Part shown: positions 50,763-54,763 of the stretch, piece by piece | Layout: the number at the start of each line of letters is the position of its first letter | How positions within the stretch are numbered: position 1 is the stretch's first letter | NCBI GenBank assembly: GCA_027623675.1 | Contig: JAQBVF010000015.1 | Coordinates: 1-64,000, forward strand | From: Chloroflexota bacterium | GTDB lineage: Bacteria > Chloroflexota > Dehalococcoidia > Lucifugimonadales > UBA3495 | Reading direction: 5' to 3' | Length of the DNA: 64,000 nucleotides | Notes under the pieces: model-generated | What the model was told of the DNA's origin: nothing | Database searches by the model: none | What the model saw: only the letters and a program-made list of their open reading frames with translations | Translations under genes and position numbers: made by a program

Positions 50763-50870
50763 GCAAGACAGATAAGCGATACGGCACATAAAGCCATGGC
50801 CCGATAGCCTCGAGCCGTACCGTTATCGACCTTTAGGTTACGACCTCACTCGGAATTACTCGGTGGCCCG

Positions 50871-52580
50871 CTAGATACCGTCTTGACCGGGCGCGGTTTG
50901 GGTTTCTTTCTCCCTCAAGAACAGATACCCCACGACTACTACCCCGATGACAGCGAGCGCGATCAACGCGATCACGGCCATCGATATAGGCCCATCTGCT
51001 GTACCGGAATCAGCTGCCTGCTCCGCCGGGGTCCCTGAGTCGCCGGCCGAGCTTGAGCCAGATACCGGTGGCGCGGCTTCCGGTCCATTCTGGTCCAGTG
51101 AGGAATCAGAAGGTGCGGCTGTCCCCTGTTGTTGGAAGGTCAGTCCGAAAACACTGAATCTGTCCGTCCGCGCCGATGCAGGCAGGTTAGACGTGTCAAC
51201 CGTGGTATCCAGCGGCAGCCAGCGGCCCAGTACCGGCTCATAGCGTTGGATCGAGATGCCATTCGGTCCGGATATTTCTAGATCTGCACTGCTGAATCCC
51301 ATCCTGAGGACCGCTTGTTCCAATAGGTATACATCGGTAAGAAGGGTGCCCTGGGCATCTAGAAGATTCACCTCGACGACGTTTCCAAGGTCACGGCTCG
51401 GCGGCGCCGTGGAACCCATGCCGCCGCCGGATTCACGCATGGCGACGAATCCCACCTCTTTGACCGCTCCGGGTGGAATAGTTAGGGTAACGTTATTTTT
51501 CGGCAGGGAGATCACCGTGCCGCCCGTCGGGGTAACGTCTGACACCACCGCGCCATCCAACGCCGACCGTCCGTCCATGGCAAGCGAAATGGCATTGGGG
51601 GTTAGAGCTGGGGCCGAAGAGCCGCCGGGCGACTCTGCAACCACCCGCACTGATCCGCTCGAGGCTGTGGCCGGCCAGCTTGTTGCGTCCATGGCGTTGA
51701 CCAGGTCTTTGATCGTGACGTCCAATGGACTGGCCCCTTTGGTCATTCCGGTGACCTGAATGTTCAGGACAACAGTGCGCCCAACTGGTCCCGGCCTTTC
51801 ACCGTGGAATCCCACGATGTTTACGAAGCCCTGCTCTTGGGTCACGCTGAATATGGGCGACCCGCTGAAGGGAGCTTCTCCCGGCAATATGCCGTCGATC
51901 CTGATGACAGCCGGGTTGTAGCCGACCGATATGTTATATCCCGCCAATCCTCCCTTGGGAGTAAATACAACGGTCACCGGGACCGTTGTCGATTGGCCCA
52001 GGGCTACCGATGAGGTGCCAATCATCACCGCGGCGTTGGACACCTCGGCGCGGCCGTGCTGCGCGGACCCGACCGCGATGGCCTGGTCCAGACTGCCCTT
52101 GAGTTCCACGCCGGAGAACCTCAGGGCGGTTGACGCATCCAACTCCCCAACCGCCGAGACGCTGATCCTTGCCAGGAGTGCGTCCTCGGCGGCCCCGCCC
52201 CGCGTCCGGTTCGGGCTGATGGTGACACGGCCCGAACCGTTGTCAATGGATGAGGTCGGTATCTGGTCGAAGGGGGCATTTCCTCCGCTCACGCCGTCAA
52301 CCGTGATCACTGCCGGGTCATAGTCCAAGGTCACGGAATACCCGGTTAACCGGTCGGTATCGTCCAGCCCGAATACCCACAGATCCAAGACGTCCTGGTC
52401 GCCTGGACCCATCAGCAACGGCGCCGGCAGCACGGCCAGCGTGGTGTGACCGGCCAGCGCTGGCCGCGCCGGGATCGACAGCGTAATCACCCCCGCAGCC
52501 GATACCCCGACCGCTAGCAGGAACAACCGATTGACCGGCAACGACCTAAATACGTTTTTTACGATTTTGATTATGGACAT
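50871..52580 (-). CDS. Membrane-anchored scaffold: signal peptide, two cohesin-like domains, ZU5-like domain, C-terminal TM
   Basis: PARPALA signal; two repeats LTGYSVTLDYDPAVI / LAGYNISVGYNPAVI...G.APF; TPTGG...LTIPPGAV...RFSVFGL; TM followed by REK. Confidence 0.75.
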   Translation of the reverse strand: MSIIKIVKNVFRSLPVNRLFLLAVGVSAAGVITLSIPARPALAGHTTLAVLPAPLLMGPGDQDVLDLWVFGLDDTDRLTGYSVTLDYDPAVITVDGVSGGNAPFDQIPTSSIDNGSGRVTISPNRTRGGAAEDALLARISVSAVGELDASTALRFSGVELKGSLDQAIAVGSAQHGRAEVSNAAVMIGTSSVALGQSTTVPVTVVFTPKGGLAGYNISVGYNPAVIRIDGILPGEAPFSGSPIFSVTQEQGFVNIVGFHGERPGPVGRTVVLNIQVTGMTKGASPLDVTIKDLVNAMDATSWPATASSGSVRVVAESPGGSSAPALTPNAISLAMDGRSALDGAVVSDVTPTGGTVISLPKNNVTLTIPPGAVKEVGFVAMRESGGGMGSTAPPSRDLGNVVEVNLLDAQGTLLTDVYLLEQAVLRMGFSSADLEISGPNGISIQRYEPVLGRWLPLDTTVDTSNLPASARTDRFSVFGLTFQQQGTAAPSDSSLDQNGPEAAPPVSGSSSAGDSGTPAEQAADSGTADGPISMAVIALIALAVIGVVVVGYLFLREKETQTAPGQDGI

Positions 52581-52588
52581 CCTTCCCT

Positions 52589-54340
52589 CTACGGGATCGG
52601 CTCGTAGAACTCATCCACGTTGCCGACCAAGAACTGGGCGATGAGTATGGCGTCGGCTAAACTGATCACATCATTTGGCCCATCGTGGTTCACGCTCCCC
52701 GCATTTACCGGATGGACCTGGCCAGGGCCCTCGCCCACCGGCCTGGAGGCAGGCGACACCAGGTACTGGCCAATGAACAGCGCATCGCTGATGCCGACAC
52801 TTCCGTTGGCCGATGCGTCACCCCGTAGGAAAGTCCTGGAATCGGGCGGCGGTTCCTGTTCGATCGGATTCCCAGCGCCGTCCAATATCTCTACGAAAGT
52901 CAGGCTTACGGTCGTCAGACCCGACACCGGATCATTGGACCCCAACAACCGGAGAGCAACGAAGGCCAGTGGGTCGATCGGGGCCACGACGCCGGTTCCC
53001 GTTGTGACAGCGGTCGCCTGCATGTGGACCGACCCTGCCAGGATCGAGCAGTCGGTGACACCGGAAGTAAATGGCGACTTCAACCGGCAGTCCGTGCCGA
53101 CCGCCTGGGCTGCAGGGAATGTGATATTAGCTTCGTAGCTTGCTATTTCCCGGGTTGGCAACGGTGTTCCGGTGGCGGTGTTTTTGATCAGGTCGATGGT
53201 GGACTTGACGCCAGTGGGCAAGGCCGGGTCATCCACATCTTGGACCGCCACCAGGCCGGTTTCAGCCGTGGCAGTGATCGAAACCAGACAGATCTGTCCA
53301 TCTTGGTGCGTGTTCGTCAGGGCCGCGCCTGCGTTGTCCACGATCTCCACCACCGTCAGGTCAACAACGCTGCATTGCCCTGCAGTTCCCACAGCCTCGA
53401 ACACTACGTTCGCGACGGTGATTGCCGCCGGCACGGACTGTGAGCCACATTGGAAATGGTTCCAGGCTACAACACCGGCCCCGGAAGTGGGACTGGTGAT
53501 ATTTGAGGCGGTGATGCCGTTGAATGGCGAGTCACCGCCCAATACCGCAGTGGCGGTGATAACGGTGGAATCGTAGGCAATCTCGAATTGGTAGGCGCCC
53601 AAGTCCCCGGATGGCGCGTTGAGCACGTCCACCGGAATCGTTGTCGACGTGCCGGAAACACCCAGCGTGACGTCAGTAGAGAGCGGCACCGTTACTGACA
53701 GTACCGGCGGAGGTGGTGGCGGAGCCAAGACGGTTACGGTCGCCGTGAACGAACCACTGTTGTCGCCCACTCCGCCGGTGTCCAATCCGCTTCGGTCGCA
53801 TTTAACGAACCCATCGTTGAATCCCAGGAATAGGGTTCCGGCAGCGTCCGTTGTATTGGCTATCGGAACTGTACCGTCAAAACTGGACCCGATGAAGAAG
53901 CCTTTCCCGTCTAAGCTGGACGCCGCTGCTATGTTTCCAACCAGCGACTGTCCTTGGACACTGGGATCGGTGACCAGGTTGGAGCAGCTCCCACCCGGGT
54001 CGACGCCGTCCGGTCCGGCAGTTCGACCGGCCGAGTCGAAGATTATGACTCCGGTCCCGGTCACCGATATGGTGTAGCCGGAGCCGACCGTAAGCCCGGT
54101 ATTGGTCCATGCCTGTGTGGAAGGCACGTTGATCGTGACAGTCGTCGCCAGAGGCCCTGAGAGACCGGCGGCGGATTCCTTGGGCCAGTACCGGCCGGTT
54201 ATATCTTCCACGCTCCCTGTTCCAAAATTGGCCAGCACGTTGTTGAACAGTATCAAGAACAAGGTGATACTGGACGCCAAACAAAATGCTGCGATGAACA
54301 CCATCGGGTCGAGACCTAATGCCACTCTCGTGCGATTCAT
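52589..54340 (-). CDS. Exported modular protein: LecA/PA-IL-like domain, cohesin(s), C-terminal dockerin
   Basis: N-terminal hydrophobic segment; WTNTG...GPDG...LGFND...DNSGSF; P6 linker; LGAYQFEIAYDSTVI; RGDASANGSVGISDALFIGQYL and VNHDG...ISLADAILIAQFL. Confidence 0.75.
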   Translation of the reverse strand: MNRTRVALGLDPMVFIAAFCLASSITLFLILFNNVLANFGTGSVEDITGRYWPKESAAGLSGPLATTVTINVPSTQAWTNTGLTVGSGYTISVTGTGVIIFDSAGRTAGPDGVDPGGSCSNLVTDPSVQGQSLVGNIAAASSLDGKGFFIGSSFDGTVPIANTTDAAGTLFLGFNDGFVKCDRSGLDTGGVGDNSGSFTATVTVLAPPPPPPVLSVTVPLSTDVTLGVSGTSTTIPVDVLNAPSGDLGAYQFEIAYDSTVITATAVLGGDSPFNGITASNITSPTSGAGVVAWNHFQCGSQSVPAAITVANVVFEAVGTAGQCSVVDLTVVEIVDNAGAALTNTHQDGQICLVSITATAETGLVAVQDVDDPALPTGVKSTIDLIKNTATGTPLPTREIASYEANITFPAAQAVGTDCRLKSPFTSGVTDCSILAGSVHMQATAVTTGTGVVAPIDPLAFVALRLLGSNDPVSGLTTVSLTFVEILDGAGNPIEQEPPPDSRTFLRGDASANGSVGISDALFIGQYLVSPASRPVGEGPGQVHPVNAGSVNHDGPNDVISLADAILIAQFLVGNVDEFYEPIP

Positions 54341-54763
54341 ACGCGCCTCCCTCGATGAATAACGGGCTGGATATTGAGACAGACCATCTATTACCAGAGC
54401 CTGGCCCGTTAGAATCGGCTAGGAAATCCGGTAACAGACCCTTCGACGCAGGCCCGGGAGTTCGCCATCAGACCTGTGTTTCCGGCATACAAGGCATCAC
54501 TGATTAGGTCATAACCATATCAGTGATATTAGAGATTATGCATCCTAAAATACCGGGCGCCTAAATGTCAAATCCGGCGGGTAACGGGTTTTCTCTCCGG
54601 AAGCACCTGTCCATTTACGTAGATAATGAATGCGCGACAGCCCCTTTGCGGTTTGGGTTGGAGCCCCTGATGCCCGCCGCTCCGGATTCTGGTAGAATTC
54701 GCCAATCCGAATCCCGAATGACCCACAGACAAAACCCCGGACAAGATAATGAGGTGATCCACC

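Follow-up and report, generated by a model that had tools for sequence, protein, structure and literature searches.

In the genome of a Chloroflexota bacterium of the class Dehalococcoidia (GenBank assembly GCA_027623675.1) we describe a two-gene accessory cassette of the cohesin-dockerin type. It lies within positions 1 to 64,000 of contig JAQBVF010000015.1, a stretch of 64,000 nucleotides which we refer to as the window. The two genes, gene A and gene B, occur, move and decay as a pair. Gene B encodes a membrane-anchored protein with two cohesins. Gene A encodes a predicted secreted protein composed of a LecA-like module, a cohesin (cohB) and an X-dockerin tail, in which an X module derived from cohesins precedes an atypical dockerin. 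We established the genetic linkage of the pair, the anchor and the folds of the domains, that of the LecA-like module being a predicted one. The cassette probably serves as a two-tier, enzyme-free surface display, in which the second cohesin of the anchor would catch the X-dockerin of its partner, and the partner would in turn expose, for adhesion or capture, a tip with a lectin fold and one free socket. A previous sequence-only reading of this DNA had described two co-oriented genes 8 bp apart in a probable Chloroflexota cell. Both open reading frames (ORFs) are indeed present on the minus strand, 8 bp separate the stop of gene A from the ATG of the downstream gene B, and related records belong to Dehalococcoidia or Chloroflexota. 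Gene content suggests a host of the SAR202 type.

Results

Genetic linkage of the pair

The genome comparison covered 60 relatives, 19 of them from the same genus. Full-length matches to both genes were found only in G005, G008 and G016 (3/19 same-genus genomes), and there the genes are always adjacent. Conservation of the pair was a check proposed by the sequence-only reading; where the genes occur, they do so together. A fourth genome with the pair is represented by locus L059; in all four the anchor gene follows directly downstream. In metagenomes the anchor gene lies next to gene A in eight of nine close loci, several of which are near-duplicates, and the ninth ends too soon.

The cassette is flanked by a class III aminotransferase gene on one side and two dienelactone hydrolase genes on the other, on the plus strand. 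Both flanks are found on one contig in 13 same-genus genomes. The site is filled in G016 and empty in the other 12, with a length of 79-111 bp in 11 genomes and 568 bp in one. In G005 the site is empty and the pair is located elsewhere. The GC content at third codon positions is 0.67-0.75 in the cassette genes versus 0.80-0.83 in five neighbour genes. A search for terminal repeats or a target duplication around the cassette found no flanking repeat pair.

Gene B encodes a membrane-anchored two-cohesin protein

Two stretches of the gene B product (P0001) match the Pfam family Cohesin (PF00963) with 40.1 bits (cut-off 24.1, E 5e-10). The structure model of residues 44-490 (25 rows, predicted local distance difference test (pLDDT) 83) reveals three domains, the first two of which have the fold of type I cohesins in comparison with PDB entries (cohesin 1: Z 17.4, root mean square deviation (rmsd) 2.1 over 134 residues; cohesin 2: Z 17.0, rmsd 2.0 over 129 residues). 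Generic immunoglobulin (Ig) or CBM folds were considered for the repeats and rejected, with Z 16-17 to cohesins versus 10-11 to the best other sandwiches. The third domain resembles ankyrin ZU5 (3ud1_A, Z 12.2, rmsd 2.8, 130 residues) and the GAIN domain of BAI3 (4dlo_B, Z 10.2, rmsd 3.2, 127 residues); an Atlas search had earlier hinted at the same. It is followed by a low-complexity linker, a hydrophobic segment at residues 532-550 (mean hydropathy 3.09) and a short tail. The Pfam scan gave no SLH match, and among relatives no conserved sorting motif precedes the transmembrane helix. Signal peptides of both genes were called from hydropathy and the layout of relatives, not by a signal-peptide predictor. 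Gene B hence unites cohesins and a predicted cell-surface anchor in one predicted exported protein, as in an anchoring scaffoldin. The sequence-only reading had seen in this gene a signal peptide, two tandem cohesin-like repeats, a further beta domain of unnamed identity and a C-terminal transmembrane segment, and had proposed a membrane-anchored scaffoldin. This description is supported for a scaffoldin-like protein, and the beta domain now has a fold. The motifs it quoted for the two genes are present, except that the second cohesin repeat reads YNPAVI rather than YDPAVI and that the second dockerin loop of gene A has three residues (PND) after HDG, not two.

The two cohesins are unequally conserved. 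Mean identity among relatives is 64% for cohesin 2 versus 49% for cohesin 1, and the conservation of strands 3 and 6 is 0.87 and 0.88 in cohesin 2 versus 0.65 and 0.46 in cohesin 1. Strands 4 and 7 of cohesin 2 score lower (0.64 and 0.68). Dockerins bind the 8-3-6-5 sheet of cohesins. Since strands 3 and 6 are the most conserved, cohesin 2 is likely the working socket; cohesin 1, whose presumed face is poorly conserved, is likely a spacer.

Gene A encodes an adaptor-like protein with an X-dockerin tail

The model of residues 213-583 of the gene A product (P0002; 86 rows, pLDDT 92.9, predicted TM-score (pTM) 0.81) consists of two beta-sandwiches followed by three helices. Against Pfam Cohesin (cut-off 24.1) the first beta-sandwich, cohB, scored 22.1 bits in one scan and 26 bits in another. 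Its fold is that of a cohesin (Z 16.6 to 4uyp_A; Z 15.6 to 2xdh_A, a cohesin of Archaeoglobus; best non-cohesin rows Z 10-11), and the three cohesins of genes A and B match PDB cohesins with rmsd 2.0-2.3. CohB dominated the matches when the model was searched against PDB. Its strands 3 and 6 carry near-invariant residues (A249 in 17/18 sequences, Q251 in 18/18, W293, N294 and Q297 in 19/19). On their presumed faces, cohB carries A-Q (strand 3) and N-H-F-Q (strand 6) and cohesin 2 carries G-N-S and G-F-H, a divergence that suggests different partners.

The second sandwich, the X module, has no Pfam match. It is all-beta in the model and aligns with the cohesin profile (hhalign, 98.2%, E 4.7e-14). 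X was considered as a third socket; this is disfavoured because its conservation across the wide family falls on strands 4 and 7.

The three helices belong to the dockerin (residues 517-528, 544-548 and 561-571, pLDDT ~97) and follow two Asp-rich loops in the model; the profile matches the solved dockerin 5m2s_B (E 1.3e-6). The duplicated dockerin-like loop and helix which the sequence-only reading had placed at this end are therefore there, together with a linking helix. The proposed search with Pfam Dockerin_1 (PF00404) nevertheless stayed below the cut-off (15.1 and 16.4 versus 22.9 bits). The NCBIfam scan gave nothing useful. Canonical dockerins ligate calcium through Asp or Asn at loop positions 1, 3, 5, 9 and 12 in both repeats. 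Among 151 sequences of the X-dockerin family, loop 1 has Asp at position 1 in 94%, Asn at position 3 in 16% (mostly Arg or Lys instead), Asp or Asn at position 5 in 90% and Asp at position 12 in 99%; loop 2 begins with Ser in 85% and keeps D553 in 89% and D563 in 99%. Both helices preserve a symmetric D-A-L-x-I-A-Q pattern across these 151 sequences. No other part of gene A is as well conserved as the dockerin (76% mean identity).

The N-terminal module has a predicted LecA-like fold (TM-score 0.73-0.75 to PA-IL clusters in the Atlas, with one named row). A homolog, P0036 (E 2e-31), matches Pfam PA-IL (PF07828) with 28.1 versus 22.5 bits; the module itself has no Pfam PA-IL match, and a PDB sequence search gave only an unrelated weak match. 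It is absent from all 22 close relatives. Eighteen of these are complete at the N-terminus; 14 have no cargo domain and four a propeller-type domain, and the counterpart in L059 bears yet another domain. As N-terminal domains differ or are missing among relatives, gene A appears to be an adaptor-like chassis with a swappable tip. The sequence-only reading had rightly recognised an exported protein with a dockerin-like end, but overlooked the cohesin, the cohesin-like X module and the LecA-like module, and its view of the protein as plain cargo has to be given up. Gene A has a cohesin and a dockerin-type tail, and most complete relatives lack a cargo domain, in which it resembles an adaptor scaffoldin. 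Its product seems to be more adaptor than cargo.

A second pair and no sign of a cellulosome in the genome

Only two dockerin matches were found in the genome, neither of them on a hydrolase, and P0002 is the only X-dockerin. The second dockerin belongs to another pair (G000:C44:17630-21236; L001, L002). It consists of a 966-aa protein, in which PPC-like repeats are combined with a cohesin and a dockerin of more canonical type, and, after it, an N-terminally anchored cohesin protein of 216 aa. Locus L147 is named together with this pair. Pfam cohesin matches occur in 18/19 same-genus and 30/36 same-family genomes, and in the same genus they mostly take the form of two neighbouring open frames of about 970 and 220 aa. 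This distribution suggests that the C44 pair is the core cohesin-dockerin system. The cassette is thus not the isolated copy assumed before: the genome-wide count of dockerin proteins gave two, and the other pair is more widely kept.

Searches of the 91%-complete genome for GH5, GH9 and CBM3 gave no match, with positive controls, in line with the earlier remark that no glycoside hydrolase is nearby. The GH48 search was uninformative, as it matched in none of the controls. Dockerin-bearing glycoside hydrolases together with a CBM3 scaffoldin, the hallmark of a cellulosome, were not found in this genome. Likewise, a search for Mur ligases in this 91%-complete genome gave no match (10/14 controls positive), consistent with the peptidoglycan loss described for these lineages (PMC10284905). 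A sortase-family gene (G000:C2:4613-5023, 48.8 bits) is present in the same genome.

The wider X-dockerin family

A profile of the X-dockerin collected 226 clusters at E <= 1e-30 and 564 at 1e-10, all without attached taxonomy. In the set made up of the best 150 and P0002, the dockerin is C-terminal in 128/151 and follows an X or cohesin module in 137 of the 139 with room upstream, a partly circular count since the query held X. Metagenome loci seeded on dockerin words have such a module upstream in 65/66, where confirmation also used X. A domain scan covered 112 of 149 new hits (>=300 aa), 65 at E 1e-6 and 47 at 1e-8. Carriers include 9 with Peptidase_S8 and 21 with PKD domains, others being propellers, beta-helices, a C1 peptidase and a multiheme cytochrome. 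None of the 112 has Dockerin_1 or a named glycoside hydrolase family; one DUF4185 and two CBM96 were seen. Ig-like proteins also belong to the family, which is patchy and rare class-wide (7/401 genomes including the own one, up to seven scored copies).

Loci L044, L075, L091 and L104 share the order X-dockerin proteins followed by a cohesin protein. L044 (G044:C5:216000-235999) is operon-like: a secreted peptidase-like gene, split into several pieces, is grouped with three X-dockerin proteins and one cohesin protein, and transposase-like ORFs adjoin the run; more X-dockerin and cohesin genes lie elsewhere in the G044 genome. P0053 (2059 aa) has 14 cohesin-like repeats related to the X-dockerin family and is a large scaffoldin candidate. 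In P0145 an X-dockerin is fused N-terminally to MtrC/MtrF-like multiheme cytochrome domains, a possible surface-docked electron-transfer protein. Finally, Methanomicrobiales proteins (L062-L064) have a C-terminal dockerin in which the last helix and the tail weakly resemble those of the X-dockerin (E 8e-5 to 3e-4), a hint of kinship with archaeal dockerins.

The display model and its alternatives

According to the display model, both gene products would be exported by Sec. The C-terminal helix would keep the gene B product in the membrane, and the ZU5/MAIN-like domain together with cohesin 1 would form a stalk that is not cut. Cohesin 2 would bind the dockerin, probably with calcium, as its cognate partner, while the X module would stiffen the dockerin rather than act as a socket. 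The swappable N-terminal module may set the outside target, being LecA-like here and a propeller, another domain or nothing in relatives. The cohesin of the partner, whose face is unlike that of cohesin 2, could recruit a further dockerin. This model is favoured by the adjacency of the anchor and partner genes, which move as a unit, and by P0002 being the only X-dockerin of the genome. The domain folds and the conserved strands 3 and 6 of cohesin 2 also speak for it, and the strong binding reported for the A. fulgidus pair ORF2375/ORF2376 (PMC9705933) is a precedent.

Several observations weigh against it. The model needs a third partner to explain the many complete relatives that lack a cargo domain. 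Both calcium loops of the dockerin deviate from the canonical pattern. Sugar binding by the LecA-like module is suggested by its fold and a transitive Pfam match. The analysis of the presumed binding faces was made on conservation by strand in 15-19 related sequences. Moreover, frameshifts disrupt the anchor gene in L059 and in five further loci, where they fall at two different places (L053, L065 and L066; L067 and L068), and breaks in the X region are seen in L067, L069 and L071, so the cassette appears dispensable in some lineages. The frameshifts of the five loci fall in cohesin 1, one of them at a run of G. They are shared between loci and likely mark real pseudogenes; phase variation at the G run is possible. 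A programmed frameshift is unlikely, because the window copy is intact and the breaks occur at two different places. Complex prediction of cohesins 1 and 2 with the X-dockerin gave 0.26 and 0.24 against a mark of 0.32, the controls not having been folded, and counts neither for nor against binding.

With one socket and one plug, gene A might also build a self-extending fibre, in which cohB binds the dockerin of the next copy and subunits chain head to tail from the anchor with many lectin-like tips. A fibre would explain why most relatives have no cargo. It would fit the five near-invariant residues on strands 3 and 6 of cohB, the single X-dockerin in the genome and a cassette that moves without a third gene. 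Cohesin and X of the model can also be aligned with a rod of two domains set end to end (rmsd 5.1-5.8 over ~250 residues). However, the presumed faces of cohB and cohesin 2 differ, and the adaptors with one cohesin and one dockerin described in PMC12484212 join different partners. We regard the fibre as unlikely, but as the chief alternative to the display model. In its boldest form, a wall-less Dehalococcoidia cell would build a cohesin-dockerin pilus with a membrane-anchored start, a head-to-tail chain of cohB and X-dockerin and a swappable lectin-like tip on each subunit, and the X-dockerin would be an undescribed surface-sorting tag below the Pfam cut-off, common to hundreds of protein clusters; this is a doubtful proposal.

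Further, a cassette cohesin might bind the more canonical dockerin of the 966-aa C44 protein, re-displaying or cross-linking it, so that the cassette would be an add-on to the core system. That pair is common in the genus, and the one dockerin match of the genome besides P0002 belongs to it. Yet the C44 protein has its own adjacent membrane-anchored cohesin. The C44 cohesin scores 17 bits on the cassette cohesin profile, the C44 dockerin does not match the X-dockerin profile, and G005 has the cassette but no 970-aa cohesin frame among its three hits. An add-on of this kind is improbable.

Another, separate addition to the display model concerns the anchor, which might be releasable. The ZU5/MAIN-like domain would cut itself at F-S, and the whole assembly would be shed under shear. 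Cleavage of MAIN (microbial GAIN) domains is reported to use H-x-S/T (bioRxiv 10.64898/2026.05.12.724683). The fold match to ZU5 and GAIN speaks for release, as does the order of signal peptide, adhesion domains, MAIN and anchor, which is that given in the preprint, whose examples include a cohesin protein that anchors a cellulosome. Each of the 16 distinct anchor copies reaching the motif retains the Ser. Unlike the described MAIN proteins, however, all 16 read R-F/L-S, with Arg in place of the His which the described mechanism uses. In ten distant matches the His position is His in two, Ser in four, Thr in two, Gly in one and Arg in one (one read by eye). Loss of His is therefore common, and a special lock by the change from His to Arg was rejected. 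We consider self-cleavage hardly probable, as the domain has the fold and the place before the anchor but not the catalytic motif. The parts of the preprint consulted do not mention Chloroflexota; its supplementary tables may list such proteins. Domains of this type also occur on other Dehalococcoidia proteins (G000:C36:63162-65540; L054, L055, L154-L163), which look kinase-, TPR- and propeller-like by eye; in these Ser is kept and the His position varies.

Least probable is that nothing assembles, the modules being rigid stalks of two separately exported adhesins or the cassette a decaying relic: non-canonical calcium loops, repeated frameshifts and the presence in only 3/19 same-genus genomes would suit this, but within gene A conservation is highest in the dockerin, its D-A-L-x-I-A-Q pattern is kept in both helices, the presumed face of cohesin 2 is nearly invariant and the genes stay adjacent.

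Features of the locus

The features are listed in Table 1. The candidate promoter is a lead only, since the scan of the region for sigma-70-type promoters found two sites versus 1.6 expected by chance. Just downstream of it, at window positions 54496-54527, lies a 14-bp inverted repeat with a 4-bp gap, possibly an operator.

Table 1. Features of the cassette, in window positions.
Feature	Position	Strand	Evidence
Gene A (P0002, 583 aa), predicted secreted LecA-like + cohesin + X + dockerin protein	52589..54340	-	ORF, Pfam, structure model
Predicted signal peptide of gene A, residues 1-37, putative cleavage after VLA	54230..54340	-	Hydropathy 2.62 at 14-32; same layout in relatives
LecA/PA-IL-like module, residues ~64-205, swappable insert	53726..54151	-	Atlas fold match; homolog P0036
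Cohesin of gene A (cohB), residues 214-354	53279..53701	-	Pfam; Z 16.6 to 4uyp_A, 15.6 to 2xdh_A
X module, residues 357-504, beta-sandwich of cohesin origin immediately preceding the dockerin	52829..53272	-	hhalign; model
Atypical dockerin, residues 505-583	52592..52828	-	Three helices; 5m2s_B profile match
Gene B (P0001, 569 aa), membrane-anchored scaffoldin-like protein with two cohesins	50871..52580	-	ORF, Pfam, structure model
Predicted signal peptide of gene B, residues 1-43, putative cleavage after ALA	52452..52580	-	Hydropathy 2.12 at 19-37; A-x-A kept in relatives
Cohesin 1, residues 45-181, likely spacer	52038..52448	-	Z 17.4; 49% mean identity
Cohesin 2, residues 182-314, likely working socket	51639..52037	-	Z 17.0; 64% mean identity
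ZU5/GAIN-B (MAIN-like) domain, residues 342-484	51129..51557	-	Z 12.2 to 3ud1_A, 10.2 to 4dlo_B; secondary structure; motif table
R-F-S motif in last beta-turn of ZU5/MAIN-like domain, replacing H-x-S/T	51153-51161	-	
C-terminal transmembrane anchor, residues ~532-555	50916..50987	-	Hydropathy 3.09; kept in full-length relatives
Accessory cassette, approximate extent	50763..54670	.	Aminotransferase stop to conserved region upstream of dienelactone hydrolase gene; empty sites in 12 same-genus genomes
Candidate sigma-70-type promoter	54542..54571	-	10/12 matches; ~200 bp before gene A

Discussion

The cassette would work like an anchoring scaffoldin with an adaptor and is no cellulosome. Closest to it among known systems are the ORF2375/ORF2376 pair of Archaeoglobus fulgidus, the cohesin-dockerin proteins of anaerobic methanotrophic (ANME) archaea and the cohesin-X-dockerin end of CipA. 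ORF2375 of A. fulgidus carries a cohesin as well. The dockerin of ORF2375 and the cohesin of ORF2376 are reported to bind strongly (PMC9705933). As in the cassette, consecutive ORFs encode one protein with a C-terminal dockerin and a next one with a cohesin outside a cellulosome, and the Archaeoglobus cohesin 2xdh is the one that matches cohB at Z 15.6. Unlike this pair, the cassette has a bacterial host, an anchor with two cohesins, a ZU5/MAIN-like domain and a transmembrane helix, and a dockerin with non-canonical loops that follows a cohesin-derived X module. In ANME archaea, enzyme-free proteins with a dockerin and several cohesins have been proposed for surface attachment, their partners being described as untested (PMC9012536, PMC5244752). 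ANME genomes hold tens of such domains, whereas here a compact, mobile two-gene cassette is found in Dehalococcoidia.

The top Foldseek matches to the cohesin-X-dockerin model are to the C-terminus of Clostridium thermocellum CipA (4fl4/3kcp, E 2e-10); like CipA, the gene A product would be held by inserting its X-dockerin tail into an anchor at the surface. The X module of CipA is Ig-like, whereas that of the cassette is homologous to cohesins, and the global TM-score is low (0.35-0.40). In contrast to the CipA system, the cassette cohesins look like type I, the anchor is a transmembrane helix, and no CBM3 or cellulase was found. The adaptor scaffoldins ScaC, ScaH and ScaB of Ruminococcus flavefaciens and Acetivibrio cellulolyticus likewise combine cohesin and dockerin in one secreted protein linking tiers, as described in PMC12484212. 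In contrast to these, no dockerin-bearing enzymes were found in the genome studied here, and gene A has a swappable N-terminal binding module. The predicted fold of this module resembles that of LecA/PA-IL, to which one homolog is tied by Pfam. Unlike LecA, it is fused to other domains and has neither a PA-IL match of its own nor a LecA match in PDB by sequence.

Our literature searches found no description of this system in Dehalococcoidia. The principle of plug and socket is already known, and the cassette is only a moderately new version of it. What it adds is evidence from empty sites, a tip that can be swapped, an X-dockerin family whose X module derives from cohesins, and a presumed stalk of the ZU5/MAIN-like type. 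The role of cohesin-dockerin modules outside cellulosomes is an acknowledged open question (PMC5244752, PMC9012536). The cassette offers a small test case, with one plug type, three candidate sockets, a natural comparison to empty sites inside a single genus, and domains suited to separate expression. The X-dockerin could yield an orthogonal pair for designer scaffolds, and its tail is a usable marker for surface proteins which Pfam misses. Moreover, the cassette shows how a bacterium with no Mur ligase match might hang binding proteins on its membrane.

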